Source: Gonapodya sp. JEL0774
Taxonomy: Eukaryota
Length of the DNA stretch: 64,000 nt
NCBI GenBank assembly: GCA_027604505.1
Contig: JADIIX010000049.1
Span: forward strand, 62,001 to 126,000
Direction of reading: 5' to 3'
The notes below the pieces were generated by a model. The model was given only the letters and a program-made list of their open reading frames with translations. It did not search any database and was not told the origin of the DNA. Below are positions 20,967-63,530 of this stretch, one piece after another. Made by a program: the position numbers and the translations under genes. Position 1 is the first letter of the stretch. Every line of letters starts with the position of its first letter.

Positions 20967-21244
20967 GAATTGGCTTGTCGATCTGGCAGTTGAGCTCGAT
21001 CCAGGGTAACGATTAGCCCACTGCAGATTTGTGCAACAATTGCAGCATCATTATGTAAAGTGCATTTCAAGAGACCACCGACTACTACGGAGTTCTTTTC
21101 ACACAGCATATCCATGCATTTGGGTGTGTGCTGAGCTGATCGCAGTGGGGTGCAAGCCCCTGATTGTGGTAACTTTGTTCGGCCCCACCACCAGGCAGTA
21201 GCCAGGCACACCTGCAGTTACTTCCCCCATTTTGACTTTCCGTC

Positions 21245-23550: not shown

Positions 23551-25984
23551 CTACAACTGCGACCGGGCTGTTCCTTGTCGAAGTGGGAGCCAAATCTGTG
23601 ACTTATACTTGCCCCCAAAATAAATGAGTTGCTTTCCTTTGTTTGCATTATACTGCGGAATACGGATGGGAACTGGAATGTCTGCAATACATTATAGAGA
23701 AGATGATTCGTTGTAATTCAAAGAAGGTAAAGTTGTAGACGTACCTGAGTAATTACTGTTCACCGGTGTGATGTCCAGTCTCAGTCCTTCGCCAGGTGAA
23801 ACGGACATTGCCATCGGCCAAAGACCAGTGACTATCTCCACAATCTCCCCGGGCTTAACCGGAGTGTTTTCATCGTGTGGGTGGAATGGAACCCCAGGGA
23901 AGTTAATTTCAATCTCTTCGCGGGATGCAGGTGGGCGAACCTTCCGCCTCGATGCACGGATTAGACCATTCGGCCCGACATATCTGAAAAGGCTGCTCTT
24001 TGGAAGACTCTCGTAACTGGTTGGTGGAGTTTGCCCCATTTCTATGGCTGCCCGTTGCATATCTTGGAGTGGATAGGTAAAGAGATCCAGCGGCTTTCCT
24101 TCCCGAGATAGCTTACGAACAGTGAAGCACAGATCAAAATCGGTGTGCGATTCAGCCGCAGCGTGCACACAGACGCGGGGTAGGCCCACGAACTCAAGTG
24201 TGGTACTGGCTTGAGCAGAGTGTATGTATGTCCAACTTGCCACCGAGGAGTTGTTGGCAGAATCATACTCCACCCAAGACTCTACGTCCAGTGGTGATTT
24301 AGAGAGCACTCCATCACGCGTCAAAGAAAGCGACCATTCACGAACGTCAGGTGGAGGAAAGTCAGATGCAACTTGGTAGATCTGAACCGGATCACCGCCA
24401 TGTGGGTGGACTTGGTAGCGGACCGGCGGAGTTCTATCGGGCCATTTATTGTCGATCCCTTTCAGAAAATGATCAAAAAATCCAGCAAGATCCTCAACGT
24501 TTTGGCGCTGGTGAAGATCGTGCCACTCCTGTCCACCATGGAAGCGAAGCCTTTGAAAGAGCATTCAACAAGCTGTGTCGCTCACTGAAATGTATTCCTT
24601 GAGGACGGAATCGCATGATCCTCTTACCATTTATGTATGCTCGCAGCGTTTTTCCATGCCGTAATGCTTCCAAGTAAATGCGCAGTACTGCCCATTGCCG
24701 CAGTCGCGTAGATTGGTACCACAATCTTTGAAGGTTTTGCAGCCTTTGTTAAGGCGTAGTTTCGAAAAAATCCATCTTGTCCAGGCATCACAAACGATGC
24801 GAGTGAGTCCTCCACTTTGGTTCTGGTGCATTGAGTGTTTGAAAAGACGAAATGGGCGAATTGAAAGTTTGGAATTCCACCCCGATATACGTTTTGGCGG
24901 TACTCGTCGGCTAGCCTGTGAGTACAGGAGTTAATCAAGGGGTGGACGAATAGCCTTCACCAATTACGCGTTCTGTTGCTTACCCCTCCCATGGAGCGAT
25001 CGCCGCGAGGTGGGGAGGCTGACTCTCAGCGACCCAGTACTGACTCATGGCTAGCTGACTATTTCCACTCATTCCGACCTGTGAAGAAGTCACCGCTCTG
25101 AATCATGATGGTTGGATCCGACACGGATGTTGTCATTACATACCTTGCCATTGCACCACTCTTGCGCCGCTATCCATTCTACAACATCGTAGCCGTCCGT
25201 TATAGTCTGTGAGAGACAATTCGAGAGATTAACAAGGGAGAAGGTCCCTGGATTCACAGCGGCGAAGGTACCTGACCGCCAGGGGTGTTGGTCAGGTTTC
25301 CTCCAGAATCGTACGATCCACGGCAATCCACATGGACTATCGCATATCCACGTGGACACCACTCTGCCGGGTCGAGTCTGCACAAAATGATTGAGTAAGG
25401 TGTCGCACTTAGGCGACATTCGTTGTTTCAAACGCAAAATACATACCCCTCAAACACTTCCAGCCCCGACAGCGCAGCGGGACGCACGCCCGCACGATAG
25501 GGGACGACATTCAACTGCCAAATGTGGTTGTAGTTGTGAGCACGCAAAATGTGCCCAAAAGCAGAATCTCCCTGCTTACTGAAAATTTCCCCCGAAAAGT
25601 TTTCCCGTACGGAGTCCACATTATGATAGCTGGGAACTTGTTATCAGCACGACCGGCGGGACGGAGAATGTCCACCATGAGACTGACGTCGTCACGCATT
25701 TTTACTGTAACGTTTTGGGTGAGGATGATAGCCTCATCCAGAGGGCGAGTTGTTTTATCCAGCCTCCATCCGACTGGGAGAATTCTTTCAGTGAATTCAG
25801 GGCCATCGTAATGCGGGTCAGATTCTGGGAGATTGTACGGAGGCCGAAAGAGAACAGGCACCCCGTTGACTTCAAGGAGCTCTCGAGGAACGTTGGTGGA
25901 AATGACCGGCTCGAGGAGTTCGTTTGGGAGCAACAGCTTGAGGATAAATGTCGGAAGTTGCAGATGTGCGAGTAGAAACGCCAT
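23551..25984 (-). CDS. CocE/NonD family (peptidase S15-like) alpha/beta hydrolase, multi-exon
   Basis: VKMRDDVSLMVDILRP, WTPYGK, DGYDVVEWIAAQEWCNGKV, nucleophile elbow GMSGNSQLAMSQY, AAIAPWEG, and C-terminal GPNGLIRASRR..PGEIVEIVTGLWP. Last exon ends ...GTARSQL-TAG. Confidence 0.9.
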
Positions 25985-28488: not shown

Positions 28489-31400
28489 ATGGCGGACACC
28501 GCAGGCGTCCCGTCGACAGAATTGCCCATGACAGCACCAGCACCGGCATTGAGCGCAGCGACAACAGCGACACCATCGCAACCTAAGGAAGGTGAAGGGC
28601 CGGCAGATGCCACGACAGCAACGGCGAATGCACCGACGATGGCAGCTGGAGTGTCGCGAAAACGTGAACGGTCTCCTGTTCCGTCCGTGGCGAATAAGAT
28701 GCTCAAGACTGAATCAGGGGTTGGTGCTGTAGTTACCGGAGTTTCTGGAGCCAGCGAAGCCTCAAATGGTACAGGATCTGCCGTGCCTGGGGCAACAGGG
28801 GCAACGGGCGTGACTGGAGCGACCCCGACGACTTCTTCCATAGCTACTACTTCCAATCCTCAACCACAACCCGCTCAACCCGCTCAAAAGCCTCCTCCTC
28901 CCCCCCCACCACGGAAACGACTCGATGGCGAGCCCCCGCTCATTGTCGACGATCCTGCCCTGTCCCATTTGCCAGACGGAGTCGTCGAGAAGTTTCTTGG
29001 TGAGCTCCCAGAGTGTGGATCAGACCTCAGTGATGGATGCGGGGGGATGAGTGTTGTTGACATACGACTATTTCGAAATTACATTTACGGCAGTCAAATA
29101 ACGGGATAGTAAATTGGGTGGCCAAGAACATGAAAGCCGTGCAACCAGGCAGCAACTCTGCATGTTGTTGTGGAAGTGTTGTCTCTACCGAGGCACCCAT
29201 AATGAAAATATGGAGTTGACCTGGATCTGGCGGTGTTCAGCATGTGCTGTGGTACAGTCTAATTGGTCCAAGTACCCTCTGGCAAGCCTCGGAGAACAGA
29301 GCAGCCGCCGGAACGACTGAAGAGTCAATGGCCATCAATGCCCGATTTGCATCATCGGCGGATCTTTTTTTGAAAGCAGAGAACACTGCGCTAGGTGCTA
29401 GGAGCAGTGGAGTGGTGTGGGTGGACTTTGGGGGAGGAGTTATGTTGGTGTGTCTGTATGCCGCATGGACCTCCCCCGACGAAGGAGACACAGACTCATC
29501 CCGGAAAACACAAAAGGAGAGAAGGCTTGTGGATCAACTGAGTGGTGAAGGATGATCGAGCGATCATGATAGGGTGGAGCGGATGGTCGCCTGCGGCATC
29601 ACCCTCTTCCTTCGTTCGCCGCTCATACCGCGCTGTCCACCCACCCACCATACCTACAGGGTCCCTCCCCTACCAACCTCCAACATACCCCCGCCCCTCC
29701 CTACCCACAACCGTCTCTGTCCGTTTACGTCCTCTACCCCTCTTCGCCTCGGCGGATCTCTACGGTATCGTCGAAATACGCGTACCGTTGGAAGAAATAT
29801 CCGTAACAAATCTGGCAGTGAGGAAAAGGGCGGTGTGGGGGACTGGAGTCTACACAGATGATTCTGATGTGGTGGGCGGTGAGTTTGCGGGGCGGGTGTT
29901 GCGGTTGGCTCATATGTGCAGTATCACACTATTGGACAGGGTCGGATGGTAGAAGTTTACCGAGCCAGGTGCTGCTGGGAAACAAATTTCGAAAGCTTCG
30001 TAAATAATGGGAGAGAGTCTGCCCTGACCTACTCTGCCCGCGCTGTGCAACATCCCACTGTGCCACCGCTCTGCCAAGCTCGCAACTTACATTCAAAATT
30101 CAACTTCACAATGCCACCACACTCATCCACCACCCTCCGCCGACCACGTCACACCCCAAATCTAAGCGCTTATCCACTCGGGCTGGATCCGGCCACTCGA
30201 CGCACCTCCGATCGTCTCCCCTCCAGATAACTTTACCACATCGGGTTACATTCTCCCCGGTGACCCCGTATCCCCAAACTTCTCTTCCGCTTCCTCCTCC
30301 GACGCATTCGCTTCCGCTTCTTCCACATCAAAACCGACCAACAAAGCCCCTTTCCCAGGCCCACCACCACTCCCGCTCCCGCTCCCGGCCCCCCACCTCA
30401 CCTACTCCCACACCCTCCTCGCCCGCCTGCGCATCCTTCCCAAACTTACCCGATATACTGGCACGGTCCGTAACGGGCTTCGGTCGCGGTCATGGGGGGG
30501 CAGCCATTTGGGGGAAAGTTTTAGGATTGAGGGAGTCGAAATTGTGGAAGGGGGCAGGAGGGCAGGGAGGAAGGGGATCGTGAAGAAGGGGGAGATGGAA
30601 GGGGTGGTGGTGTTGGTCGGCGAAGGCGTCGTCAGGTGAGTCGCGCGTGGCAGTTTCGCCTGGCGATTTGCTTCGTGTGAATGGAACACTGACATGATGA
30701 ATCTTGGTTTTCGATGGGGTAGTTTCAAGTACGATCCCTCCCTACTTGTGAGCTGGCCCCCGCATGTGTATCGGGCCATGTGGCAACAGATGGACGACGC
30801 AGGGAAAACCGACGATTCGTCATCCTTCGAAACCACACGCGCCCCCAACCCCACCCTGTACCCATCTTCATCCCACCCCGGCTCTGCCATCTCTTCGACC
30901 TCCAACTCTCCTGCTGATCCCGCTGCGGTCGACGACCTCAGACTCAAAACGTGGCAGGCAGGGTGGGACGAGTTGAGCGGTATGTACAAGGGTGTGCCGT
31001 TGCCGCGATTGTGGAGCGAAGGGTGGGAGGGATGGAGGGTGAGGATGGAGGTGGAGGTGCTCTACATGGACGTGGTGGAGGGGAAGAAGTGGGTTCCTTA
31101 TCATTTGATGCTTTTTACACTAGGGAGTCTGGGGTGTGTTTGTAACCCGCTTTTCGTTTCTGCCGGTACAAATCACAGTCGCTCCCGCTACGAACTCTCT
31201 CTCCAAACCGCTGTCACCACCCCTACCCGTCCCACCCCTGCCCCGCTCGCCGCCCGCTATCGGTTAGCCTTACTGGACCCTTCAGCCTTCCCGTCCTGGG
31301 ACGACCCACTGCCAGCCTGTCCTGTGCCTGGTTCTCACGAAGGAATTCGAGGGAAAAAGGTCGTTTTGGGAGTTTTGGCAAGGGATTTGGAAGGCGGGGA

Positions 31401-36318: not shown

Positions 36319-39300
36319 TTAAAATTTGAATTCAGTTTCATAATATGCCAATTCTCTGCTGATGCATGTTGAAATATTAATGTCCTCTACTCTTGTTGCT
36401 TTTATCACCAGCCTCGGAAGTGAAAAGGTTTCTAAAGGGGCATCACCACTGCTGAGTTTTACTGTTCTCTCGGGGTACTTCTCGTCTCCTTCTCGCCGAT
36501 ACCTTTTCCCATAAACTACGACATCTCGGAAGATGTGGTCATCCCTGCAGATAGCTCGCAAAACGTCATCGTCAGCAGCCTCATCCTGCGAGCTCAAAGC
36601 AGCGCTGTAAATATCCTCCTGATCCTCAGCAATACTGTAGAAGTCAACATTTCGGTAGCTTATTTCACCTTTCCTCGAAGTGACCTCTTGCAGCGAAGTT
36701 TCTAGAATCGCACCAGTGCGTAACAACTCAAATACCGCTCGGGGACCTTCGAAATATACGTGTGCTTCCCCCGTTCCATCTTCCACCACTGCCCTTGCCT
36801 CAGCAGAAAAGTGGCCGCGATCTGAACCACAGGAGTTGCCGCATCGTTGATCGCGATACCGAGTGCCACACACATCACATTGGAACCGCAGAGTAACTTC
36901 AGCAAGTGCGATAATTCTGCATGATACTTGTAAAGTGGTGCGGAGATGCAGAAGCTCAACCTCTAAGAGTTCACAGAGACAAAATCGTGGGGCTCGGGAT
37001 AATGATGCGATGTCCAGTTCATTTGGTAGTCTGTTCCGCACGGAAAACCCAGCGCCATCAGTGGAGCTGACATTCCCACATACCTCCACCGCCGTGCACG
37101 CGAGGCTGGCACAGTATATCGATCGACCACCCTTTGATGCCTTCCTGGCGCTATTCCACACCCGGATAATGGCACCCGGAATCACCCCGAGGGGCCAGAC
37201 GTGAACACTGAGATCCCAGTAAAAATCTACCACGTCGATTCCTACAAGATCTCGGATCTTCAAATACAACACCTTTCCGACTCGTCCAGTTCCGACTGCG
37301 AATTCGTGGAATAGCTCAACGGGGCGAGCAATGTTAGGTTTTGAAGTTCCGGACTCCAGGTTTCGCATCCACCAAACACCACCACCCTCTCTATCCCGAA
37401 ACTCTTTGGACACAATAACACCCTCAAATGACGCGAGACGTTCCAGATAGCCATGCTGTGTGCCTTTGAACGAATGTGCGTCGTTCGAGTTAAGTACCTC
37501 GCAAACATCAGACAAATAGGGTGCGTGCGCGGAATAAACCATTTGAACTCTTGTTAGCGCTGGCGACGACGTAGACTGCGTCACAGGATCGAACACTATC
37601 CGACCAAGAAGGTCCACTTTGATTCCGGAATTGTTTTTTGAGGAGTCGCAAGTTGGGCCAGCTGCGATTGAACCATTTGCACTTGAGGCATTGTCCATCC
37701 ACAACCTATCTTCTTGTGTCATTATAGACATCGTATCATCCGACATGTCCGGTAAATTTTGACCACCGTCCTCGGGGTTAATCAGTCCACGAGATTCAAA
37801 ACCGTTCCGTGAAACGATCTCGACCCTCGATTTCTTCCCAACTTCCACAACAAACTCGCCGGTTTCCCTGAGTTGTTCCTCCATGATCACTCGATGAATG
37901 CGATAGCATCGCCCGGTCTCGAGATATGCCAGCCAAGCAACGGCGTCCCCTCGAAAAATCAAGTGAGCGAAAACCGGTGCTGAGGCGACTGGGATTCTGT
38001 CCGCCTCGTCAATCGAGCCCGTGTTCGTCGTTGAATCTTCCCGAACGATCCCTTCGCAGGAGGCTGCGAAGGTGGTCTGTCCGTCAGATAACAAATGCAG
38101 TCGAGGAGCACTCACGAACGTGAACTTCACAATGATGTCAACAAAAGTATTGGCAGGAGCATCTGACTTGCTCACGTCAGCTCCGTTTTTCGAGTCTTCA
38201 ACACATCCATCACTTTTTACTTCTGCAGACTCAAGGAGACCACCACGCTCCACCAAGCAAACCAGGTCTTCCTCTTTGCACCGCACCCACATTGTTATCA
38301 ACCCGTTCGCCACCCGCTCCACCACAAGCTCCCACTGTTCCACCATCCACAACCCGCCAATCATAGATGGGTCAAGAGAACCGTTGATAGGCACACCTTC
38401 CGATCTCTGTACTACGAGCGGAATCCTACCGGTGATGTCAGCGAGCTCAAAGTGTCCCCGAGAGGACGCTTGAATTTTCCCCCCCAACACCGCACGATCC
38501 ATCCCGACATCCGCCGGAGCCAATACGGCTAATGCATACTCTTCGCTCTCTCTCATTGCAAGCACCGCAGGGTGTCTTGACAACTCATTCAATGTAGGAA
38601 ACCGGCGAACTTCGAACCCTCTTCTGGCGGCGCAGCACTCCGAGTGGTTCAGGAATGTGGTGAAAACGTCCGCGCAAGGCACATCGACGATCTCAGCGTA
38701 TCGCCAACGGGTAGCGAGGGCAGCTAGCAAGCTCGGATGGTTGGGGTCGCCTGAGCCGTATACCAAGTTCCGGGGTATCAAGCGAATCAATCCTTTACGA
38801 CGCAGGTCCGAATGAATTATGTGCAAGTGAATTGCATCGAGTGCAGAAGACCAAGAAGCTATAGCGACCGGCACTGGGTAGGATGGTACGACAACGTGAG
38901 CTGTGTCCGATGGAGTCAGAGACGAAACAGAGCCTCCAGAAGGGTGCGGCGCCTTGACCACCACCTCGATAGTGGACCGAGAGCACGCGACAAGAATGCT
39001 CTTTCCGTCAATTGTTCTCGTGAGATGAACATTGTGACATTCCACTGAAGACCCCGCGCAGAGGTCTCGTGCCACTGCGATTCTATGGAAGTGAAGCTGG
39101 ACTTCGCCGTCGAGTAGAACGAGCGGCGTTATAAGAATATCAGATGGAATGTTAGAGACAGTGCCGGAGTAGGAGATCATCGAAGGGGTTCCGGTAGTGC
39201 AGTCGTGTGGTGGTTTTGCCCATTGGCGGACGTTGGTGGTAACATCAGACAACAAAGTGGTGGCTCTTGAATTCACATGGTTGGTCATGGCGTTCGCAGT

Positions 39301-40815
39301 TTCCGTCGTTGTCGCCACAGGAACCACTACCTCATCTCCAAGTACAGGCCACAATCTACTCTTCCCCTCTACCCACGATGCTACCATCTGTCCTCCCTGA
39401 AACTGCCTCACAGCCACTTCAGTGAAAACGTAGTCAGCACCGACGCGGATCAGGTCGTGGAGGGGATATAAGCGAGGTAACTTGAAGACCACAAAGGTTG
39501 AAAAGTAAGTCGGGGCGAGGAACGGAGTCGGGGGATGGACCGAGGTTGCCGGAGAAGTAGCATTGAAGGGATACCCGAATGATTCCAGGGGTTCCTTGCC
39601 CTTTTCTTTGTCCTTTTCAGCGGCCCTCGCGCCTTGCCCGTCGCCTGGTCCCACTTGCGGGTCCACCCCGACGTCGCCGGCTGTCCTCTCACCATATCTT
39701 ACTTCTACAACAAAAGTCTCGCCACCTGACCGGCCCTGTATCACGGGAGATTTTGCCACTACGATTCCCCGGAAAGTAAAAGACTTGATGCGGGGTATCG
39801 TTGTGCGTGTGAAAGTAACGACTGAGGGATCGATGGGTGGGGAAGGTTGGTGGGCGGTGGGATGGGAAATGGGGGAGGGACCTGCTGGGAGGGAGTTGGG
39901 ATTGGGTGAGAAAGTTCCCCATTGTAGAAAGTAACGTATGAACGTACCCATTACAGTTCCAGTTCCTTCGAGGTACCTGTTAACTGGCCTCAACGCAGCG
40001 AGCAGAGTCGGCGCGTGGAGATGCGGGAAGCGTTGGCGGTCGTCGATCCATCCCTTGGCCAGACTCTTGTCGGAACGGGGGTCAAAATCGTCCGAGGTGA
40101 AAGCGTACCTGGGGATTTTGTTGAGTGGATGGTGGCGTGGCAGGGGGATGGGGAGGTCGGTGATGAAGAGAGTACCCATGTGGAGGGAGGTTGAATTAGA
40201 GCGGCGTGCCTTAGGGAACGTGTCCGATGCATTTGAGGCACCGTTGGGCTGGTATGTGTATGATGTGATGCAGAGAGGAATACCGGACCAAGGGGATAAG
40301 GTAAAGTGAGGGAGAGTTTGTGAATTGTGGGTGACGGTGGTAGGAGTGTCTTGGGAACTCGTATTCTGTAATATCCGCACAGAAGATGTTGTGGTTGATG
40401 GCGTGAGCTCGGAGTGATATGGTAGAGGTGCGTCCACGGGCGACGTGTAACCAGAGAGGAGGATGTCGAGCGGGGGTGGATAGACCGCATTCGATGAGGA
40501 AGGGTGGTGGAATTGGGACCGTTGGGGAGCAAAGACACAGCGCAGCGCTCCGGTTTTATCGGACACGAAGAACGAGTCAAGGTCATTCCGTGCATGCGGA
40601 GATATAGAAAGAGGCCAGCCGATGTGGAGGGTGACCGAGAGGACCGGGAGAGGGTTCGCAAAAGTTCCCTTCTCCGGCAACGAGTGCGAAGAGTGAGGGG
40701 AAGAAGCTGTGTTGCTGGTGGTGATGTTGTTGGTCCCGGCAATGAGAGACGATATGCAGATGAATTTGAAATGGACGAGGCTTGATTCCTCGATAGTGGT
40801 CGATCCATGGCTCAT
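36319..40815 (-). CDS. CTC1: CST complex subunit CTC1 (multi-OB-fold telomere/replication protein), single 1498-aa ORF
   Basis: Motifs resembling animal CTC1: VECHNVHL; LGGKIQASSRGHFELADITGRIP; WPLGVIPGAIIRVWNSARKASKGGRSIYC; and a C-terminal Zn-ribbon OB fold, FQCDVC..RC..C..AEARAVVEDGTGEA. Confidence 0.8.
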   Translation of the reverse strand: MSHGSTTIEESSLVHFKFICISSLIAGTNNITTSNTASSPHSSHSLPEKGTFANPLPVLSVTLHIGWPLSISPHARNDLDSFFVSDKTGALRCVFAPQRSQFHHPSSSNAVYPPPLDILLSGYTSPVDAPLPYHSELTPSTTTSSVRILQNTSSQDTPTTVTHNSQTLPHFTLSPWSGIPLCITSYTYQPNGASNASDTFPKARRSNSTSLHMGTLFITDLPIPLPRHHPLNKIPRYAFTSDDFDPRSDKSLAKGWIDDRQRFPHLHAPTLLAALRPVNRYLEGTGTVMGTFIRYFLQWGTFSPNPNSLPAGPSPISHPTAHQPSPPIDPSVVTFTRTTIPRIKSFTFRGIVVAKSPVIQGRSGGETFVVEVRYGERTAGDVGVDPQVGPGDGQGARAAEKDKEKGKEPLESFGYPFNATSPATSVHPPTPFLAPTYFSTFVVFKLPRLYPLHDLIRVGADYVFTEVAVRQFQGGQMVASWVEGKSRLWPVLGDEVVVPVATTTETANAMTNHVNSRATTLLSDVTTNVRQWAKPPHDCTTGTPSMISYSGTVSNIPSDILITPLVLLDGEVQLHFHRIAVARDLCAGSSVECHNVHLTRTIDGKSILVACSRSTIEVVVKAPHPSGGSVSSLTPSDTAHVVVPSYPVPVAIASWSSALDAIHLHIIHSDLRRKGLIRLIPRNLVYGSGDPNHPSLLAALATRWRYAEIVDVPCADVFTTFLNHSECCAARRGFEVRRFPTLNELSRHPAVLAMRESEEYALAVLAPADVGMDRAVLGGKIQASSRGHFELADITGRIPLVVQRSEGVPINGSLDPSMIGGLWMVEQWELVVERVANGLITMWVRCKEEDLVCLVERGGLLESAEVKSDGCVEDSKNGADVSKSDAPANTFVDIIVKFTFVSAPRLHLLSDGQTTFAASCEGIVREDSTTNTGSIDEADRIPVASAPVFAHLIFRGDAVAWLAYLETGRCYRIHRVIMEEQLRETGEFVVEVGKKSRVEIVSRNGFESRGLINPEDGGQNLPDMSDDTMSIMTQEDRLWMDNASSANGSIAAGPTCDSSKNNSGIKVDLLGRIVFDPVTQSTSSPALTRVQMVYSAHAPYLSDVCEVLNSNDAHSFKGTQHGYLERLASFEGVIVSKEFRDREGGGVWWMRNLESGTSKPNIARPVELFHEFAVGTGRVGKVLYLKIRDLVGIDVVDFYWDLSVHVWPLGVIPGAIIRVWNSARKASKGGRSIYCASLACTAVEVCGNVSSTDGAGFSVRNRLPNELDIASLSRAPRFCLCELLEVELLHLRTTLQVSCRIIALAEVTLRFQCDVCGTRYRDQRCGNSCGSDRGHFSAEARAVVEDGTGEAHVYFEGPRAVFELLRTGAILETSLQEVTSRKGEISYRNVDFYSIAEDQEDIYSAALSSQDEAADDDVLRAICRDDHIFRDVVVYGKRYRREGDEKYPERTVKLSSGDAPLETFSLPRLVIKATRVEDINISTCISRELAYYETEFKF

Positions 40816-41583
40816 CAGGGTCGCCAGCGACAGCCAATCATCCCTTCCCGGGTTCCCGGTTGCGACTTCTCAAACGAGAAGCAATCCAGCAACTTCGGGT
40901 GAATAGTTTCCGAGTTCTAGACTCGTGGCGGCGAAGATTCGGTTGGGACTAGCGCTTCAAAGGCCGGCAGCTGGAGGTTATCAAGATTTTGAATTGATTC
41001 GAAATCTTGCACGGATTCGCTCACGTGTTCCGCTTTCAGACGCTTTCTGAACTACACTGGCACTTCACCCTCTCGTGTTCTTCCTCGTATGTAGGTTCGT
41101 TCTTTTGCCCAAACCTGTGAGGATTCGCATTGGGTGCTTGATCCAGTAACACAAGAAACTTCCGCACATTTTCACTTTGAATCAGGAGTTATCGACGAAG
41201 ATCCCCAATGTTTTCTCCTCTGATTGCCGCTTTTTTTATGAAGCACTAAGACTTTTTGTTAGCGTCATGGGGATAGTGCGATTTTGAAGTTGGATCCCCG
41301 TAATCAAACTATCTGGGACCTCGCGATTTAAGAAATCTTTTTTTTTTCCAATACTGCACGTCTATTCAATACGCCCATTTTGAGCCGAATGGTGGGGCAA
41401 GTTGTCATGGAGGTCGGGGATGTTCCTGCGGAGCGGAACAACTCTGAGACCTGGACACAGGGTTCACGATCACAGTGTGATAAGGATTGATCCACCACAC
41501 AGATATATATGAATGTATGTCCACACAGCGCACAGTTTTCTTGACCAAGACTCCCTACAGGGCAGAGTTTCATCTCCATCATC

Positions 41584-44500
41584 ATGCCCTCGGATATCAG
41601 AAGCCATTCTTTCCATCGCGTGGTCATCGTCGGTCTGGGCATGGTCGGCCTCAAGATGTGCGAGTCGCTCATCTCCATCGACGAACTGGCCGGCGCTTCT
41701 TCCTCGGAGTCATTCCAAATCACCGCTTTCTCGGAAGAACCCAATGCAGCTTACAATCGCATGCTACTCACCTCCTATTTTGAACATGGCTCCGTCGAAG
41801 CGCTGACGATGAAACCTGCCAGCTGGTTTGTGGGAAAGGGCATTAAAGTGGTCAAAAGGAGAGTCACAAAGATTGATAGAGCAAGGAAGGTGGTCACTGA
41901 CACTGCTGGAGCGGAAACAGAAGTATGTGTGGAGGAGCGGTGACTCGATGACGCAAATCTCTCACCACTCGCATCTAATCGTCCAGTACGATACACTTAT
42001 AATTGCAACCGGATCTAACTCCTTTGTCCCTCCCATCAAAAATGTTGAAGCCCCCGGTGTCTTCGTCTACCGAACCATCGAGGACCTTGACAACATGATT
42101 GCCTACGCCAAATCCTGCAAGCAAGCGGCTGTTCTTGGCGGAGGTTGGCTCATTGAATATTCACAAAAACTGAATCTCGTTTTGTTATAACCCGAGAACA
42201 TCTACCGATAGGCCTTCTCGGTCTTGAAGCCGCCGCCGCCCTGATGCACCTCAATCTCCAAACTACCGTCGTTGAGCGAAATCCGCACGCGCTTGCCCGC
42301 CAACTTGATGCCGAAGGTGCTAGCGTGATGATGCAAGAGCTTGACCGATTAGGACTCAACGTGGCAGTGCGCAAGGACACCAAACAGATTCTGACAAACG
42401 CAGAGGGACGCGTAAGAGGACTTGAGTTCGTGCACAAGCAGGGAACTCACAGCGGAGACGATGTTTTAGAATGTCAGATGGTTGTGGTGAGCGTCGGTAT
42501 CGCATCGAGGGATGAGTTGAGCAAGGAGTGCGGGTTGGAGGTATGTTAGCAACACATGATGACAGCACTCAGCGAATCGGGAGATCTCATGCCACGAAAC
42601 TCCGACATATCCAATAGACTCATGCAAGGGGTGGTACCGTTACAGATGACGAGCTCCGCACTTCGGACCCCTCCATCTTCGCCGTCGGAGAGGCTGTTTC
42701 TCATCGGGGAATTGTATACGGGCTTGGTGAGTAATACTGGCGTTTGTGTCCATACCATCAAAATCTTACTACAATCTCATGCAACATCCTCTTCTTCCAG
42801 TTCAACCTGGCTATGAAATGGCCCAAGTGGTTGCATCTGTGCTTGCAAAGGAACGTCACATGCGCTGCCACGCTGGGTCCGCCCTCTCGGCACCGGCCAC
42901 CAAGCGATTCTTGGGGAGTGACATGTCTACAAAACTCAAACTCGCGGGTGTGCACGTGGCGAGCTTCGGAGACTACTTTGCGGACAGGGACGGTTACAAG
43001 GGGGTGCCCGCGGCGGATGTCGTAACGGCGGTAGCCAAGGATCCGTTCGGTAAGCCTTGAATGGCAATCGATTTTGGGCGTTGGATGGGGAGAGTGGTTT
43101 TCTTACGGTCATGTTCTTCGCACAGGGTGCTCCTACAAAAAGCTCCTCTTCTCCAAGGATGGCAAACAGTTGTACGGTGGAATCGTACGTTTTTCTCTCT
43201 AAGTAATCTATTGTTGCTCTTCAGTACATCGACTGACTCCGTTATCTGATCGTCCAAAGCTCGTGGGCGATGCCACAACGGAGTACACCAAGCTACACAC
43301 TTTGGCTCGCAGTGCAGCACCGCTCAAAGTCTCACCCTCGGAGCTACTAGGTCGCAAGAAGGGTGGTGATACAGAAGAGGAGGATGTGAGGTTTTCTGAT
43401 CCGACCCTGGGGGCCATTTTCTGCCCCTCTCTAACTTCACACATGCAACATGTACACCTCCCAGGATCTCCCCGACGAAGCTCAAATTTGCTCTTGTAAC
43501 AACGTCACCAAGAAAGCTCTCGTTGAGGCTGTTAAGGCCGGTAACAAGACCCTCCCCGCACTCAAATCCTGCACGCAGGCCGGTTTGGGCTGCGGCGGAT
43601 GTGTTCCCGCGGTGACATCGATCATGAACGCGGAGATAAAGAAAATGGGAGGAACAGTGAAAAACTCTTTATGCGAGCACTTTGACTTTTCGAGGAAGGA
43701 GGTTGGTCTTGTTGTGCACAAAATATTGACGTGGTCTGATCAATGGTTCTGGTACGTTTCAGCTATTCGAGATCGTTAAAATAACAAAAACGAAGACATT
43801 TTGGGACCTTTTGAAGACTCATGGCCGAGGTAACGGTTGTGAGGTCAGTCAATTCTCAAGTGTTCGTTTATGAACTTGCTCGTGCTCACTCTATTGTTCT
43901 CGGCCTGACAAGGTCTGCAAACCAGCCGTCGCCTCAATTCTCGCCTCTCTTCACAACGAAAATGTCATTGCTAAGGCGCACATGCCGCTACAAGACACCA
44001 ACGATAGATTCCTCGCCAACATTCAGCGAGGTGGTTCGTTTTCGGTTGTGCCTAGGATCGCCGGGGGCGAGATCACTCCGGAGGGTCTCATTGCTATCGG
44101 GCAGGTTGCCAAAGAGTTTGGACTCTACACCAAAATAACTGGTGGACAGAGGATCGGTGGGTTGTCAACGGGGAGGGCTTCCGTGTTTTGCGGAAACCTG
44201 ACCACTTCCGGTTCTTCAAGACATGTTTGGTGCGCAAAAGGAGGACCTCCCGACAATCTGGGAAAAACTCATTGCAGCTGGCTTCGAATCTGGCCACGCG
44301 TACGGAAAATCCCTGCGTACCGTCAAATCATGTGTAGGCTCCTCGTGGTGTCGGTATGGTATGAGGGACTCTGCTCGTTTTGCGATAGAGGTGGAGAACC
44401 GATATAAGGGAGTTCGGTCACCTCACAAGCTAAAGGGCGGTGTGAGTGGGTGTGTGCGAGAGTGTGCTGAGGCTCAAAGCAAGGACTTCGGCCTTATTGC

Positions 44501-45740
44501 TACGGAGAAGGGATGGAATGTGTAGGTTATCAGATGCTTCCGTTGCCTCCATGAAAGTGGTTTTCTGAATGTACTCCACTATTTCATTTTATTTGTGCAG
44601 CTACGTAGGCGGCAACGGCGGATCCACACCGAAACACGCTCTCCTTCTGGCATCGGAAGTGCCCGAAGAACTCGTTATCAAATATCTCGATCGGTACCTC
44701 ATGTACTATATTGCTACAGCCGACAAGCTCACCCGGACTGCGCGGTGGATCGAGAAGCTAGAAGGGGGAATTAAGCACTTGCAAGATGTCGTGATTCACG
44801 ACAGCCTGGGGATTGCAGTGGAGCTGGAGGAGCAGATGGCGCACCTCGTCAGCACATACAAAGAGTGAGTCGTACTTTGAGGGGAACCGAAGGAAGCGCA
44901 GAGCATTATGTTTGCTCACTGATCGGCCGTGACATCTTCCAGCGAATGGGCGGAAGTCGTTAACAACCCGGAACTTCGAAGGCAGTTTAAGCAATTTGTG
45001 AACTCGGAAGAGACGCAGGAGAGCATCGTCATGCTCAAGAAGCGTGGTCAGATCGAGCCGGCACCGTGGCCCAAGAATGGAACCGGTGCGGGACCGTCAA
45101 AGGAAGACACGGAGGCGCTCATCCGTGAGAGTGGTGACCAATTGGAATGGGTGGATGTCGGTAAGGTGGTGAGTTCCGTGACTCACTGAGACCAAACTAA
45201 GTTTGCACCTTATGAGCACGTCGGCTTGATTGTAGGCCGATTTCGTTGACGATACAGGTCGCACGGTGAAGTACGGTGACACTCAACTCGCAGTATTCCG
45301 GACATTGTCCGGCGACGGATCCATTCAGTGGTATGCTTCTCAAAATGTGAGTTTCGTGAATATGTGAAGATCTATTCAAGGACTATTGTGACACAAGCAC
45401 AATCGACTCGTAGATGTGTCCCCACAAACGGTCCCTCGTTTTGTCCCAGGGTCTCCTCGGCGACGCCAATGGTGTTCCCAAGGTTGCTTGTCCCTTCCAC
45501 AAAAAGACATTCGCACTCACTACTGGCGAAGGTATCGACGATCCCAGCTTCTCGATCAGCACCTTCGAAGTTCGCATTGCGGGCGGGGACAGGATCGAAG
45601 TGAAGCTACCCAGCATCAAAACCCTGGATCGGGCATTAGGTACGAGTGCATGGAAAGTTGGCAAAGAGAGACGGCGAGCGAAAAAGATTGAGGGAGGGTG
45701 CGGTGGAGCATGCGGAGGAGGGGAGGAGCTAGCGTGGTGA
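41584..45740 (+). CDS. niiA: Assimilatory NAD(P)H nitrite reductase (NirB-type with fused Rieske NirD-like domain), multi-exon
   Basis: FAD site VVIVGLGMVG, AYNR, IIATGS, VLGGGLLGLEAA, MSTKLKL, 2Fe-2S motifs ICSCNNV..CGGC and GCEVCKP, LQDTNDRFLANIQR, siroheme/4Fe-4S motifs KSCVGSSWCRYG and GCVRECAEAQ, Rieske CPHK..CPFHKK. Stop TGA at 45738-45740. Confidence 0.97.
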
Positions 45741-48170: not shown

Positions 48171-50078
48171 TCATAGCTTCACCACTTGCTCTTGCTGATA
48201 CCCCATCTTCTTCAGAACTCCGCCCAACGGCCCGGGGGAATCGTCGGGGGCGCGGGGACCTGCCAGGTGCGCCACCATGCTGGATAGGCAGGGAGAAGGA
48301 CGAAATCGCGTGAGGAAGAAGGGTTTCACAGGGACGAGAAGGATGGATTACAGGGCGGGGGGAACAATCGACTGATTCAGTGCGACGTACCGTTCCGGCC
48401 CACATACAAGCACCACACCATTTTTGCCTGTACCTGGTGGTGGTAGCCCAGCCTTCTTCACCATCGCCTCGTCCACTCTGCCTACCAAACCGCGCCACTG
48501 TGCCTTGCCGGCATCATCCACCGTACTGTCCACCGTGTATGTGACTCTGAACCTATTGGGATACATGGCTGCCAGCGAGTCGAGTTCGTTTTTGTAGAGA
48601 ATTGATTCGGGGGAGCGGGATGCGTACAGGAGTGTGACTTTGGGTTGGACGTTGTATAGGGAGGAAGTCGGAGGAGAGGTTGACAAGAGATGAGGGAGGA
48701 GTTGGATGAGCGGTGTGATGCCAGTGCCGGCGGCAATCTGGAAGAGGAATCGGCGAGGAACAGTGAGGTGGTGCGTAGCGAGTGGGGTGAGTTGTGTTGA
48801 GGACAAATTAGTCCGCCCGTCAAATTAGTGCGCCCGTCTCAGCTTCAGTGGTCTCAAAATCCCTCTCGCCCGCACTGAGTCGTGTATCCAATACTCACAA
48901 ATCCAATCTCTTTCTGACTCCCAACTTCCCACCCTACGAACAGCCCCCTCATGTCGACCTTGGCTCCCACTTTCCTCCCAACCAGCCACGGTGTCACACC
49001 TCCTTCGTCATACCTTTTGACGACCAAGGCAAATTCGGTCGGTGTGATGAAGAGCGGGGTGTAGAAGCGGAGTAGTTGCGCAGACGGCTCGCGGAGGTGG
49101 AGGTGGATCAACGCGAGGGGGGGAAGGTCACGAGGAGAAGGCTGCAGGAAGGGGTGGGTGGGTGAAGGAGTGGAGGGCCTGGATGGGGTTATTGGGGACA
49201 TGGAAGAGCAGTGAGGTAGGTCCTGTTGCTCTCGGGTGGTTGAGCGTGGAAAGGGAATTGCGTTCGTTCCTCTCTGTGTTTCACGGACTCTCTCACACCC
49301 ACCTGGAACTTTCTTGACTACCCGTCACTGACGGAAACGCTGTTGGTGCGAGACCCCCCACGAGGGTCTTTGCTGTTGCGCTCTTTTCCTTTTCGGCAAG
49401 GAGGTCCGCCTCCCTCGAGACGGGGATCTCTCTCCTAAACTTGAGTTTGTATACATGTGGAGCGATAAGTTGCTTTTCGATCAACTCAAAGGCCGTGAAT
49501 TTGCGTGTGTCGAATACAGGTGGTGGTTCGTAGACCGTCAAGTAGTGATGTACTTGGTACGCGAGGAGCGCTGCAGATGCTATGAGGCCAATAACAAGTG
49601 CCGGGGTCGAAGACTTGTCTATGGTCGGAAATGTATGTCGGGCTTGGGGTGGTGCAAAATTTGACGGTGGTGGCAGTGAGAAGGAATTGTAATCGTGGTT
49701 ACCGTTCTGGCGTGGAAAAGAAAACGGTGGGAGCGGCGACGGGGGGTCAGTCCGGTGCAGACTCAGTGGTCCCACAAGCGGGGGAAGGTGCGCAGCCTGT
49801 TCGCTCCGGGAAGGTCGCGGTGGAGAAGATGTCGGGGAATCGTGTTCGTTGGGGGTATGATGTGGACCGGACAAGGACGAAAAAGAACGCGAAGAATACA
49901 ACCATCGCGGATGCATTTGTTGCAAAGTCCACGCAGGATGTGTCGATCGCTTCTCTCGCCCTCCTTGTAGCGGTGTCCGAGGGCCAACCACGATATTCCC
50001 ACTTGCAAATCCTCTCGCTGAAGATATCGAGTCCGTTCCTCGGAAAATTCCCCGTCTAATCCTTGAAACTGCTGCCAT
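48171..50078 (-). CDS. NADH-cytochrome b5 reductase-like flavoprotein (MCR1/CYC2-like) with basic presequence and TM anchor
   Basis: Arg/Ser-rich N-terminus, TM segment ALVIGLIASAALLAY, FTAFELIEK, RFYTP, VKRYDEGGVT, IAAGTGITPLIQ, TLLYASR, VLVCGP. Last exon MVAHLAGPRAPDDSPGPLGGVLKKMGYQQEQVVKL-stop. Confidence 0.88.
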
Positions 50079-53258: not shown

Positions 53259-55471
<2,213 letters not shown>

Positions 55472-57213: not shown

Positions 57214-58964
57214 ATGGTGTCCTCCACAAATTCAGCACCATCACCAGTAGACGTTTCCACCATTTCGTCCCTCGCCAATCGCGCCTTGCAGTCCAACGAT
57301 GCTCAGGATTTCGCTGCTGCCGAAGCAGAAAGCACCAGAATTCTGCTCGCTTCTTCCCTCAACAAATTAGAAAAGCAAATCAAGGACCCTGATGTAAAGC
57401 CTGAGCGATTAGCAGCGGCGATTGCTTTCATTTCACAGGTGAGTGCGTGTGGGGTGGGTGGTACGTAAGGAATAGCTTCCGAATATCCCACGACCATGAG
57501 TCGAGCCTCCAGCCCCTGCGAAGTATTAGAATTCTTTCGCCTGGTCTTACGATTGATATCTGGCTTATTCACCTCGTTACAGGCTACACATGCGTCTGCT
57601 CGGATGCAACCCGAACATGTTTCGCGCTATTCTTCCCTGTTAATTGCAGCCATCCATCGGTATCCGGATCATCCACGACTCGTAGATGCTGCAGCTGGTG
57701 AGTCCAAGTTGTGGACTCAGCATTCCGGACCGGACAGGGTTGTTTGTGAAGTAGATGCTTGATGCAATCTCGAGATTGGTAAACCGGTCCGTGTCCAACC
57801 ACCTCCTTTCCCCGACAGCGTCTCTCTCCTCTCTCCTTTTCCTCTCCCCTTCGCTTGCCACGCCCGAACTCACCGCGACCCTCACCCAACTTCTCGAAAC
57901 TCACGCATCCGACCCTCATGCCTCACTTCACCTCTCCATGGCCCTCAATGCCGCCTCCTCCTCTTCCTCTTCACTCGCGTCGGTGTCCGACCAAACCGCA
58001 GCAACCTCAAATTCGACGACGACGACCATAACACCCCGGATAGACGTCGTCGCCCGTGCCCTCGATTCCATCGAATCCCTCCTTCGTGGTGAGAACAACT
58101 CAATCTCACTCGAACAAGACGAGCTCGCTCAACGTGTCGCAGAGGCCGAGTCGGTGCTGGTGGATTCTCGGAACCGAGACGTCGTGATGAAACAGTACCG
58201 AACTCGGGTCTTCAACGTGTACTTGGACATATTCACAGCGCTAGGGTGGGGGCCGAAGAGAGAAGGCGCCAAGGGGGACAAAAGCGAAGAGAATGCGACG
58301 TCAATGATACCAGAGGTTCCGATGTCTCAGAAGAAGCCAGTCACCGGGGGAGACGTCGCTCACCATCTGGTAGCTGCCGCGAATACCAACACCACCACGA
58401 CAGTGAATCCCGAACACGCCCCCGCTGATGCGTCAGCCACACCCGCCATCGGTGACACTGTCACCGACGACGATTGGGATCCTTCCACTGCTGTCCGACT
58501 CGACCCGTTCTTGTTACGAGCGTACGAAGGTAACATCTGCTCGTTCTCCTCACTGTTTTACACACCTCTCACTCAAATCACCGTACGCTGCACTCACCCC
58601 TCGCCTTTAGACTTTTCCAACCTCTTCCACTGCTCGAACCCCGCTTGCCTCCGCGTCGCCCGGCACAGTTTGGAAGAGTTCAAATCGTGTGGTGGGTGTG
58701 GTGTGGTGTTCTACTGTGGGAAAGAATGTGAGTACGCTGTAGAGGAGAGCCAGAAAGTGCCCAATGAACTGACATGAAGCGCTGACGTGCGGACATCCTC
58801 TGGACCGACATCGGGGTTCAACAAAGGCCAAAAAGGTGAGATGATATGGAGTGGTGCACGTGTTTGAGACATCCCAAACGAGTGGTAACACGTTTAACGC
58901 TACGTTTTGTCTATATTCAACAGCCGACTGGAAAGAACATAAACCGGTGTGCAAGAAACGATGA
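57214..58964 (+). CDS. Protein with C-terminal MYND zinc finger
   Basis: CSNPAC..CGGCGVVFYCGKE-C-QKADWKEHKPVC, assembled through a 9-nt micro-exon. Stop TGA at 58962-58964. Confidence 0.85.
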
Positions 58965-59209: not shown

Positions 59210-61696
59210 TCACAAGATGTACCCGATCGCGAATTTGTCCTTCATCGCCTTCGCAGCGGACCCGTGAATGGCGTGGAAGTCCTCCGACGCATCCTGTCCA
59301 GCGACGATCATGATGGATTTCAGGCCTGGAAGGATGACGACAGAGGTGTTCAGTCGTTGAGGGGCGGGGACACTTTGGATCCACCAAAGAACCAAACACT
59401 GGCAAAACACTCACCACCAGGATGTCGCTTCAGAAACTTCGTGCAATCCAACACCATCCCATCGATCACAATCCAGCAGTCTGTTTCGGACTTGTGCGAC
59501 GCCACGTCGGCCATAGTCATGGGGTTCAGACCTTCCTTGCGTTTTGCGGGTGTGTTGACCAGGACGGAAGGTTTGGTCGCAGCGTCGGCTGCGGCTTTGA
59601 GTCGGGGCATCCAGCCGGCTTCTTTAGATTCACCAATGTTGGTTGGGTGCTGCCATATGTAAGTTGAGGTGGTCGGGTTATGGAATAGTTTCACTCGGTA
59701 CCACTGACAAGGTTACAACGAGTGGTTGCCAGTGAGCTCTGAGAACCTACGGCAATTGACATAGCGAGATTGGCAACTCCAACTCACATTATTCGACATC
59801 ATGCCAAGTAAGTTCCACGTTTGATCGCGCGGTTGTGTGTTTTGGCTCGCATCCCAGCATCTGACCAGCACCTCCGCAACCTGAACAGGCGTACCATCTG
59901 TGCTCTGAGTGATTGTTGTGTCCACGAGTACATCTATTTCTGCTTCCCATAAAAACCAGCACCAGAATTTCGACCCATGACGCGGCGCTCCATCATTCGA
60001 CCCGTGGCGCAGCGAAGGTGCGAGAATCCACGTCTGGCCGTCATCCACAGACAACTCCACCCGTATAATCCGCCGTCCGCCACCAGTGTAAGCGTATCCT
60101 TTGACAGGTAACCGTATCGTGAGAGGATTCGGGGCTGATGTTTCGATGGCGACGACTCTGTGGTGTGCAGGTGAGGTGATGACCGAGTTGATGTTACGTT
60201 CGTTGATAATGAATTCGGGTCGGCGCCACCAGTTGACTTTCTTCATCCCCGAACCGTTGGGGTCAGGTGTGAGTGTGGTGGAGAGGGCGACGGCGGCGGA
60301 GGTGACGTTGGGTGGGAGTACGCGGTTGTCTTCGAAGTGATAAGTTGAGTCGGATTCCTGCGGGTTATCACACAAGGTTTTGGGTGAGAGCTTGATACAA
60401 TCAATCGCGAAGTTCCTTTGAGGTACTCACAGAGTCGCTGACGGTGATTTTAGAGAGCCATTTGACCATTCTTCCGCCAATCCAGCCCGGAATGATTACA
60501 CGAAGTGGGTAGCCGTGATCTGGTGGAAGACGCTGTTGGAGCGTCAGTGTCTCATGCACGATCTTATGGGGATGCACAATCAAACAGGGTAGACGTACCT
60601 CTCCATTCATCTCATACGCAAGTAAGATATCTGATGTGTGATCAAGTGCCATCTCTAAAGGTACAGTGGTGCCGTAGTGACCTTTGGGCAGGTTGTCGGA
60701 CCCCGAGAAATTCACGTATCGCGGAACCGCGATCGTGCCATCTTCGCGTACGCCGGACTTTGGACCACCACAAAGGTTCAGAATGTGCGAGAGAGGAACA
60801 CCTGTCCAGACGGCGGTAGAAACAGCTGCAGGGCCCCAGCTTTTCCAAATTATATGCATGCAAGTGTTGAAGAATCATAGCAGGTGACGGTGACAACAGC
60901 GGGAGGACCACACCTGAAGCCTTGTGAGTTTTTTGTGACATTTTGTTCATGCCTTCGGTTACCCGCGCATGTCAAAGTGACTTGGAAGGTTGCTCTGGGC
61001 ATGCGAGCAATCTCATCCATGGAGAACGTACGAGGTTTCCGGACGAGGCTGTGTGTGTGCGAAAAGGAGCAATAAAAGCTGATAAGATCACTCATGTATG
61101 CAGTAAAGTGTGCAAAGAGAATTTACCCGTCCAGCGATACATTGAAGTCTGCCCATTCAAGATTGGGTACCGGGCCATGGTTGCGCACGTAGTGCAAGGA
61201 ATTCGGCGTCAGACCTTTACTCTTCTCGGCAGCAGCCATTAGCGTGGTGATAGGTGCCTGGAGATGGTCAGCACGAAAATTAGATGCACTCTTACCAGAC
61301 GACCCCGTTTCGAACTCACCTCTGAATTGAAAGGATGGCGACCAGTCAAGCGGATCATACTAGGATGTCGAGGAACCCAATTATCCTAGAGGTACAAAGA
61401 AAACATCGAAGATTGTCCGTTTCGAATGGGGGATAGCGACTCACTGGTGTGTCCACATCTTTCGTGTCGACACCGCCTTCCCATTGACCAAATCCCTCTG
61501 GCAGTTCAATGACTTTCTCTCCACCTTTTCCTTGATCACTCTTCTGACTGAGGGATATTGATGAGAGCGTTGACACCAAAGTAACTCCAGCGATCCCAGA
61601 TATTGCACCAAGCGCGGCGGCGACCGCCCACAAAGGTTGCGCCGTCTGAGACGAATCGACCAAGGATAGCGATGCTATGAGCGGGGCAATCGACAT
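59210..61696 (-). CDS. Nitrate reductase-type Moco + cytochrome b5 protein lacking the FAD/NAD(P)H domain, with N-terminal hydrophobic segment
   Basis: TPDNWVPRHPSMIRLTGRHPFNSE, HYVRNHG, Mo-ligand LTCAGNRRHEQN, WGPAAVSTAVW, PDHGYPLRVIIPGWIGGRMVKWL, YHFEDNRVLP, NINSVI, KGYAYTGGGR, WCW, NTQP..WNLLGMM, hinge QHPT..GWM, b5 DCWIV..HPGG..FHAIH..IGYIL-TGA. Confidence 0.9.
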
Positions 61697-62117: not shown

Positions 62118-63530
62118 TCATGTTCGGCGTTCTATTTGGAGTTTTGCTGTCCCCAAGTGGGATGCTCGCTCCACAGCTAAATCCGCACTATCGCGGTTCT
62201 CCACGAAATGTCCTTGCAGCATTGCCGTGCTCACATGGCGATCCGCAAGGCTTTGCACGAACCTCTCACACAGCTTTTCATCTGCGTTCGCGAAGAATCT
62301 CCGAAACATTCCACGTATTTGATGTGGAGTCGCCCACCCGAATTCGTGCCGCACGTCCACACGGCCAGGTCGGATTAGGGCCGGATCTAATTGGGATGCG
62401 TGGTTGGTGGTCATGAAAATAATGCGCTCTTCCGAGGAAGCAACACCGTCGAGAGCATTTAGCAGGCCAGAAAAAGTGACCATGGAGGAGAAGCTATCAC
62501 CGCATCGGTTGGTTTCAAACCAATACTGTCAACAACTAAAATCACATATATTCCTTCAACCGTCTACTCACCCCTGCTTGTCCGTCTGCTCTCGCTTTGA
62601 AAACGCCGCATCAATATCCTCGAGCAATATTAAGCTGCGATGCGGCGCATGGCTAAGGAGGTGGTTCAGGCGGTCGTCAGTAAGGCCGCGTTCTGCGAGG
62701 TTGAGGACACAGATATTGTACTCTAGGTGGCCAGCCAGAGCCAGAATGAACGATGTTTTACCAGAGCCAGGAACACCGTACAGTAGGTACCCCCTTCGAT
62801 AGGGAATACCTTGAGGAACGTGAGAAGAGATTTACGGTCCTGATGTTAGAAAACGGCTGTGTGACGCACCTCTGTCGTAGTACCATCTGCCATTGTCAAT
62901 AAATCCTCTGACGTCATTCAATATCTTTTCCGTGACTCCATCGTCCAAAACCACGGAATCGAGTGGCCGTCTTCGTCTCGGCTGGCCGAATGGCCTCCAA
63001 TCAGGCCCATAGCTCGAGTAAATCACCGTTTTACCCTCCTCCTTCTCCAACGCTAATACCCTTGATTCCTCGAGAAGCTCAGCGAATAACTTCCTGTCCC
63101 GTGTCAGCGTCGTGAGCGTCACAGTCTCCCATGGAGCAGCGTTCGTTAGGTCCAACATCTGCCGCTCCCGCGTTCTCTCCACCATGAACCATGCGCCCCG
63201 ATAACGAAAAAAGTGAGTACCTGGGCCTGCAACGAGCCCAAACTCAGTCTTGGTACTTCCGTTATCGTGCCGGGTGTGCTGAGTTTGGACGCTCAAAGTA
63301 GGGTTCCATGCTGAAGCGGTAGGCGATGAAGTCATCCAATTCAGCACCCACGGGTATGCTTTGTCTTTGGATGGAATTTCCAAGGTAACCAAGAGCCGCC
63401 GACGGGCGATGCTAGCTCCCTGAACGAATCCTTTGCGAAGTACGGCGAGCGCGGTGCCCACGCCGAAAAGGCCGAATCCGGCAGTGAAGTAAGGGTTCCC
63501 TTCGAAAGCTGCAAAAATTGTTTCGCTCAT
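62118..63530 (-). CDS. BCS1: Mitochondrial AAA chaperone BCS1
   Basis: [112 protein letters not shown]. Confidence 0.97.

Follow-up and report, generated by a model that had tools for sequence, protein, structure and literature searches.

The 64,000-nucleotide window analysed here (Gonapodya sp. JEL0774, contig JADIIX010000049.1, positions 62,001 to 126,000 of the forward strand) contains a short gene of the nitrate reductase (NR) family, an intact gene for an NAD(P)H nitrite reductase and, between the two, a gene of the cytochrome b5 reductase family (Table 1). An earlier reading made from the letters alone (the sequence-only reading) had described the first of these as an NR with molybdenum-cofactor (Moco) and heme b5 domains and no FAD/NAD(P)H domain. 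The model of the gene bears this description out: it has 633 open codons followed by TGA, no internal stop and eight GT-AG introns of 59–89 nt each, it carries in frame every NR-type motif named in that reading, and its product runs from the Moco domain through the dimerisation domain to heme b5, where it stops. Scanned exon by exon, Oxidored_molyb was found on exons 4–6, Mo-co_dimer on exon 7 and Cyt-b5 on exons 8–9, the last with both heme ligands (His593 and His616), as claimed. Beyond the sequence-only reading, the protein has a hydrophobic segment at amino acids (aa) 22–42, and the window holds the nitrite reductase and b5-reductase-family genes.

Table 1. Position of the short NR-family gene, its parts and the neighbouring genes within the window (E, expectation value; KD19, Kyte–Doolittle hydropathy score)
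Feature	Position	Strand	Remarks
Short NR-family gene	59210..61696	minus	9 exons, 633 aa
NR gene, exons 1–5	61696-61445, 61385-61320, 61257-61127, 61048-60914, 60839-60599	minus	
NR gene, exons 6–9	60532-60431, 60357-59788, 59703-59415, 59325-59210	minus	
Moco domain	60431..61385	minus	exons 2–6, ends in exon 7; PF00174 on exons 4, 5 and 6
Exon 4 with Mo-ligand Cys177 and Arg182	60914..61048	minus	Cys177 codon 60969-60967
Exon 7 with Asp319/Asn320, dimerisation domain and Leu493/Met495	59788..60357	minus	PF03404, E 3.8e-33; residue mapping
C-terminal heme b5 domain	59213..59529	minus	PF00173 on exons 8 and 9; ends at the stop
Heme b5 ligands	His593 59424-59422; His616 59266-59264	minus	
N-terminal hydrophobic segment, aa 22–42	61571..61633	minus	KD19 1.9
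NAD(P)H nitrite reductase gene	41584..45740	plus	15 exons, 1052 aa, intact; Pyr_redox, BFD, NIR_SIR, Rieske; candidate electron donor
Cytochrome b5 reductase-family gene	48172..50078	minus	PF00175, E 4.5e-20; open 4-exon model; second candidate donor
Convergent MYND-finger gene	57755..58964	plus	context only, bounds the NR 3' end; zf-MYND, E 0.0017, below the curated cut-off

The absence of a flavin domain was sought in two ways. No FAD_binding_6 or NAD_binding_1 match was found in the 14 pieces scanned with Pfam, which included the frames over and past the NR stop, so that the Pfam picture is, in what it contains and what it lacks, the one anticipated. A profile of NR FAD/NAD domains run over all 2318 stop-to-stop pieces of the window gave a single match with E < 0.5, at 48824-48351 in a separate gene, and none directly downstream of the NR stop. 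The distance from this stop to that of the convergent MYND-finger gene, put at about 245 bp before, is exactly 245 bp.

Orthologues with the same three domains are found in Gonapodya prolifera (645 aa) and Cladochytrium tenue (598 aa), their chains ending 2 and 5 residues past b5, respectively. Against G. prolifera, the Moco domain and b5 are each 84% identical and the dimerisation domain 69%, as opposed to 45–54% in the linkers, as would be expected of a gene that the sequence-only reading had called apparently maintained. Because both orthologues end at the same place, the gene is by this comparison intact and conserved, affected neither by decay nor by the assembly break considered earlier; the window is moreover free of N characters. 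We regard it as extremely improbable that the gene is a pseudogene, is mis-assembled or is spliced on to a distant FAD exon. Although there is a potential splice donor 12 nt ahead of the stop codon, and the same strand carries the b5-reductase-family gene 9 kb farther downstream, the residues past this donor are conserved coding sequence in G. prolifera and Cladochytrium, the introns of the NR and nitrite reductase genes measure 59–89 nt while four genes lie in between, and the ESM Atlas holds a cluster of 119 proteins with this 548-aa architecture. The public model of the gene (P0001, Gonapodya sp., 588 aa), 100% identical in exon 7, skips exon 4 and thereby loses the catalytic Mo-ligand Cys. 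The G. prolifera orthologue has that exon and supports it as part of the gene, and its omission is on this comparison an annotation error.

Residues R131, C177, R182, W196, D319, N320 and M495 match active-site positions of yeast NR, whereas Asn, Leu and Met occupy the positions of Tyr322, Arg450 and Val452 of chicken sulfite oxidase. The yeast Thr position is taken by Leu, as it is in 40 NR rows of our alignment, and the catalytic Arg pair is followed by His instead of Lys, a substitution present in 3 of 274 rows. With the specificity positions having the functional roles that we presume for them, the active site is, by its residues, of the NR type and not of the sulfite oxidase type. This bears on the possibility that the enzyme runs in reverse, passing electrons from a substrate through Mo and b5 to cytochrome c or O2, which we consider highly improbable. 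The two cofactors are those of animal sulfite oxidase, and plant sulfite oxidase is peroxisomal (PMC10574614), but besides the three replaced residues the best match of the G. prolifera orthologue in the PDB is the Mo fragment of yeast NR (2bih, 268 bits, versus 221 for wild-type chicken sulfite oxidase), b5 is C-terminal where sulfite oxidases have it N-terminally or not at all, and the gene nests among NRs, distant from the single sulfite oxidase row. Placement within the sulfite oxidases, which the sequence-only reading had allowed for, is thus opposed by active-site residues and phylogeny alike.

The protein shares with eukaryotic NAD(P)H:NRs the Moco and dimerisation domains with the Mo-ligand Cys, the substrate positions, a two-His b5 after hinge 1 and a position among NRs on trees in which the sulfite oxidase outgroup is one row on a long branch; what it lacks is the FAD/NAD(P)H domain at the C-terminus of the chain. 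To judge from these features the gene descends from the eukaryotic NAD(P)H:NR family, yet it is not a canonical member because its chain has no FAD/NAD(P)H domain. At the other end, aa 22–42 are predicted to form a signal anchor, with basic residues after the segment and no basic presequence before it. The first 50 aa are 58% identical to G. prolifera, and a Kyte–Doolittle value of 1.6 is reached in 10 of 224 rows with an N-terminal extension, two of the ten being the present gene. By this measure the segment is common to both Gonapodya species and rare in the NR family. Neither a type 1 nor a type 2 peroxisomal targeting signal (PTS1, PTS2) was found in the protein, whose C-terminus is the end of the b5 fold.

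To place the gene, trees were computed from the Moco and dimerisation columns of 86 hand-picked rows. In a quick tree of all 86 it falls in a clade of 15 rows (Shimodaira–Hasegawa-like approximate likelihood ratio test, 92); in a careful tree, for which 37 rows were dropped (sulfite oxidase, ten CDG-type, other long branches, near-duplicates and one partial clade member), it falls in a clade of 14 with support 99/97. These 14 comprise three Gonapodya/Cladochytrium rows, two from Boothiomyces, one from Globomyces, two further short forms, five predicted fusions and one Borealophlyctis fragment, and none of them has a FAD_binding_6 or NAD_binding_1 domain; the canonical chytrid NRs form a clade apart. 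The sequence-only reading had treated the gene as a one-off, which cannot be upheld, as the gene belongs to a broad lineage lacking the FAD domain, predicted fusions included. Branching inside the clade is weakly supported, so that fusion followed by fission is not separable from repeated fusion.

The five predicted fusions (one Gaertneriomyces, two Geranomyces, two Rhizophlyctis) join the NR to the flavin module of an NAD(P)H nitrite reductase. The Gaertneriomyces and both Geranomyces proteins, of 1651–1675 aa, read Moco-dimer-b5-Pyr_redox-BFD-NIR_SIR-Rieske. What follows b5 in Globomyces resembles the beginning of nitrite reductase (E 3e-11), and a further Borealophlyctis fragment spans the b5 end into nitrite reductase. 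From these models, NR is predicted to be fused to NAD(P)H nitrite reductase in at least five chytrid genera of the clade. In six chytrid rows, 60–106 aa separate the second heme His from the flavin motif, a similarity of spacing that makes chance merging of gene models less likely. The predicted fusion proteins in our collection are P0004, P0006 and P0008, and also P0007, P0026, P0274 and P0382. The Powellomyces nitrite reductase model P0368 begins inside the flavin-binding motif, as a split fusion model would.

Short forms are not confined to this clade. Among 356 collected proteins, 27 rows (26 genes, the window model and P0001 being one gene) end no more than 40 residues past a complete b5, some of these short rows being partial models; they come from Gonapodya, Cladochytrium, Boothiomyces, many Glomeromycota, Chromosphaera and others. 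A PTS1-like C-terminal tripeptide ends 14 of the 27 short rows as against 0 of 232 full-length NRs, seven of the 14 meeting the strict pattern and seven a looser one chosen after some tails had been seen. Given 26 genes across groups, the PTS1-like ends and the 119-member Atlas cluster, the short form is, as far as predicted proteins can tell, a real design and not a series of broken models. Outside the chytrid clade, Moco-dimer-b5 short forms include P0151, P0020 and P0149, among them one of Chromosphaera perkinsii and an MMETSP transcript marked complete. Short NRs of Glomeromycota nest in two groups among Glomeromycota full-length NRs. A clade uniting Glomeromycota short forms with chytrid short and fused forms, a group named after the tree had been seen, was rejected by the approximately unbiased (AU) test (p-AU 0.0007), and with it the idea that the short and fused forms of fungi all arose once. 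The Glomeromycota short NRs with PTS1-like ends are P0359, P0272, P0269, P0112, P0281, P0095 and P0276; Rhizophagus and Funneliformis carry both a short and a full-length NR.

The G. prolifera orthologue has been counted before: a 2019 survey gives that species two euknr genes, of which the orthologue is one, together with two nrt2 and one NAD(P)H-nir (PMC6400420). The words ‘truncat’ and ‘chytrid’ do not occur in the main text of that paper, whose supplements were covered only in part, and the main-text passages searched make no remark on the missing domain. Open-licence literature listings yielded no description of a FAD-less chytrid NR or of a fungal NR-nitrite reductase fusion. The other G. 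prolifera euknr is a paralogue of about 864 aa with a CDG motif, and the same source calls a fungal euknr paralogue clade one of uncertain function (PMC6400420); from its motif we infer that the CDG-type paralogue belongs to that clade. Its presence in G. prolifera (PMC6400420) raises the option that the short NR pairs with such a full-length protein, whose flavin domain would supply electrons across a heterodimer or between molecules. We give this pairing very little chance. Complementation between NR mutant subunits is known from plant genetics.

Within the window, the nitrite reductase is 47–50% identical to the nitrite reductase halves of four full fusions. A protein search with the fusion flavin module returned mostly bacterial matches and no Gonapodya nitrite reductase, and the gene was modelled from the window instead. 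Pyr_redox and BFD fused after b5, as in the NR chimera of Creolimax and Sphaeroforma (CS-pNR), are not part of the window NR; by tblastn they occur in the window only in the separate gene, at 41.6–44.0 kb. The nitrite reductase gene lies 13.5 kb and about six genes from the NR gene. With some 14,000 genes assumed, the chance that a single-copy gene falls within seven genes is about 1 in 1000, a figure reckoned after the fact.

The b5-reductase-family gene, which we take to be Cyc2/Mcr1-like, has an Arg-rich N-terminus and a hydrophobic segment of its own, its start codon and first intron and exons being uncertain. Its N-terminal part includes a long stretch rich in Pro and Ser, and there is one insert in the FAD domain and another at the C-terminus, the latter presumably typical of mitochondrial Cyc2/Mcr1 proteins. 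Its product is 27–34% identical to NR FAD domains; since chytrid NR FAD domains are similarly distant from each other (best matches 33–47%), identity leaves the question of a split-off origin unsettled. The NAD-binding exon scores 46.6 bits to NR and 45.3 bits to b5 reductase in the PDB, a difference too small to tell the two apart, and the ESM Atlas returned a generic domain only. Taken together, its own N-terminus, its different C-terminus and the 27–34% identity do not support the view that it is a detached NR FAD domain.

In this setting, the window protein is probably a nitrate reductase fed in trans by some partner, as the sequence-only reading had proposed. Its heme and Mo centres can turn over only if something reduces the heme. 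One of the known partial activities of NR is its terminal activity with artificial donors (PMC4620153). As the partner we tentatively propose, at somewhat short of an even chance, the NAD(P)H nitrite reductase whose gene lies 13.5 kb off, acting through its flavin/Fe-S module. Electrons would pass from NAD(P)H to the FAD of nitrite reductase, through its [2Fe-2S] centres to heme b5, and on to Mo and nitrate; one pyridine-nucleotide input would serve both reduction steps, and the enzyme would be kept at the cytosolic side of a membrane by its N-terminal segment. Nitrite reductase is put first because of the relatives' fusions, the linkage here, the ichthyosporean chimera and the Paracoccus arrangement. 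The Creolimax and Sphaeroforma chimera has the order Moco-b5-Pyr_redox-BFD, and S. arctica grows on nitrate (PMC6400420), a precedent suggesting that a flavin module of the nitrite reductase type can serve an NR b5. In Paracoccus, nitrate reductase receives its electrons through nitrite reductase (PMC5424462). When the b5 domain was modelled together with the flavin/BFD part of the Gaertneriomyces fusion, without an alignment, the predicted complex scored 0.00, which speaks neither for nor against the pairing.

A different source of electrons is suggested by the N-terminal segment, which points to a membrane partner. The NR could be membrane-tethered and, as in the three-component mARC system, draw electrons from an NADH-cytochrome b5 reductase (or a P450 reductase) that is itself bound to a membrane, a free-standing homologue replacing the lost FAD domain. 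The hydrophobic segment is kept in both Gonapodya species, the lost domain belongs to the b5 reductase family (PMC6400420), a gene of that family with a hydrophobic segment of its own lies 9 kb away, and the nitrate cluster of Ostreococcus has a Cytb5R gene of unknown role (PMC4620153). The neighbour, however, starts with an Arg-rich, presequence-like stretch and may face the intermembrane space, its origin as a split-off domain is unsupported, and the fusion of NR to nitrite reductase in related chytrids is left unexplained. Because of the anchor-like segment we rank this account a close second, although taken by itself it is unlikely.

Besides this segment, several observations weigh against feeding by nitrite reductase. 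The fusions are automatic gene models, known from predicted proteins only, and those of Rhizophlyctis are incomplete, P0007 having no b5 and P0026 no siroheme half. The linkage in the window is loose and convergent, no nitrate transporter was seen there among open reading frames of at least 95 aa, and G. prolifera is scored as having no nitrate cluster (PMC6400420). The CDG-type paralogue of about 864 aa in G. prolifera could itself assimilate nitrate or donate electrons. On nitrate, Rhizophlyctis rosea grew no better than in the control lacking nitrogen, and growth of Gaertneriomyces semiglobifer was poorer, whereas a Spizellomyces isolate grew equally well (PMC9024642); the isolates are of the same genera as the fusion bearers and not necessarily the sequenced ones. 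Finally, PTS1-like ends occur in 4 of the 14 clade rows (two Boothiomyces, two others) and in a second Cladochytrium fragment (P0121), and an enzyme inside the peroxisome could not draw on a nitrite reductase in the cytosol.

The last two points lead to a further alternative, a non-assimilatory, organelle-bound reductase for nitrite (producing NO), for N-oxides or for redox balance, like the peroxisome-tagged short forms. It would fit the concentration of PTS1-like ends in short rows, the co-existence of short and full-length copies in Glomeromycota, the poor growth of related genera on nitrate (PMC9024642) and the rare His after the Arg pair. We nevertheless judge it improbable for the window protein, which has no PTS1 or PTS2 and keeps every NR-type substrate position, and whose G. 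prolifera orthologue is the only euknr listed for that species with the canonical CAG motif and Trp (PMC6400420).

The genes between the candidate donors and the NR gene (sulfatase, membrane protein, MYND) are unrelated to it, and as ordinary neighbours Pfam places VPS13, an E1-type ThiF enzyme, X-Pro dipeptidyl-peptidase, Rxt3, sulfatase and BCS1 within 1-12800, 16500-19100, 23700-25450, 29500-30650, 53259-55470 and 62121-63530. Two tandem frames bearing RING fingers lie on the plus strand at 20074-22755, and a 1516-codon, intronless-looking frame with a match to the CTC1 telomere-complex protein lies at 36322-40869, unusual in this respect among its intron-rich neighbours.

Eukaryotic NR is taught as a single chain with its own NAD(P)H input. 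The conserved FAD-less form, the predicted nitrite reductase fusions and the peroxisome-tagged forms indicate, at the level of gene models, that the flavin domain was lost several times in early-diverging fungi, mycorrhizal fungi included. It is possible, although we hold it to be less than probable, that a chytrid lineage dropped the b5-reductase domain and rewired NR to the flavin module of nitrite reductase, in one chain in some species and as two proteins in Gonapodya. If so, Gaertneriomyces, Geranomyces and relatives would possess a nitrate-to-ammonium chain of about 1,650 residues in which a single NAD(P)H site drives the reduction through all eight electrons; this would be a eukaryotic analogue of bacterial NasBGC, assembled from unrelated components. 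The natural split and fused versions make three questions testable: what reduces b5, whether channelling of nitrite occurs, and whether the short forms serve something other than assimilation. For annotation, FAD-less proteins are filed as ‘nitrate reductase [NADPH]’ yet have no NADPH site. New here are the anchor-like short form, its place in one clade with fusions to nitrite reductase, and the linkage to a nitrite reductase gene; the ichthyosporean chimera was already published.

Compared with known systems, the window protein resembles eukaryotic NAD(P)H:NR (yeast 2BIH/2BII) in its Moco-dimer-hinge 1-b5 order and active-site residues, and differs in having no hinge 2 or FAD/NAD(P)H domain, an N-terminal hydrophobic segment and Leu at the yeast Thr position. 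With animal sulfite oxidase it shares Moco and b5 heme, the lack of a flavin and an N-terminal hydrophobic segment, whereas b5 stands at the other end, Tyr322, Arg450 and Val452 are not kept and electrons would flow in the opposite direction. The mARC protein with cytochrome b5 and b5 reductase is likewise a membrane-anchored Mo enzyme with separate redox partners, but it is a MOSC-fold protein without a fused heme domain, while the window protein has a fused b5. NasC of Paracoccus denitrificans belongs to the bis-molybdopterin guanine dinucleotide enzymes of the dimethyl sulfoxide reductase family, unrelated to the sulfite oxidase family, and has no heme b5, in contrast to the window protein. 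In the NasBGC system (PMC5424462) the nitrate reductase has no NADH site of its own and is fed via nitrite reductase and a Rieske centre; trans feeding in Gonapodya is suggested by fusions and linkage only. In CS-pNR (PMC6400420) the canonical FAD domain is likewise absent and a flavin module of the nitrite reductase type is the inferred source of electrons, but there it is a fused duplicate, whereas in Gonapodya it would act in trans. As Creolimax falls outside the chytrid clade in the 86-row tree, this resemblance looks convergent.
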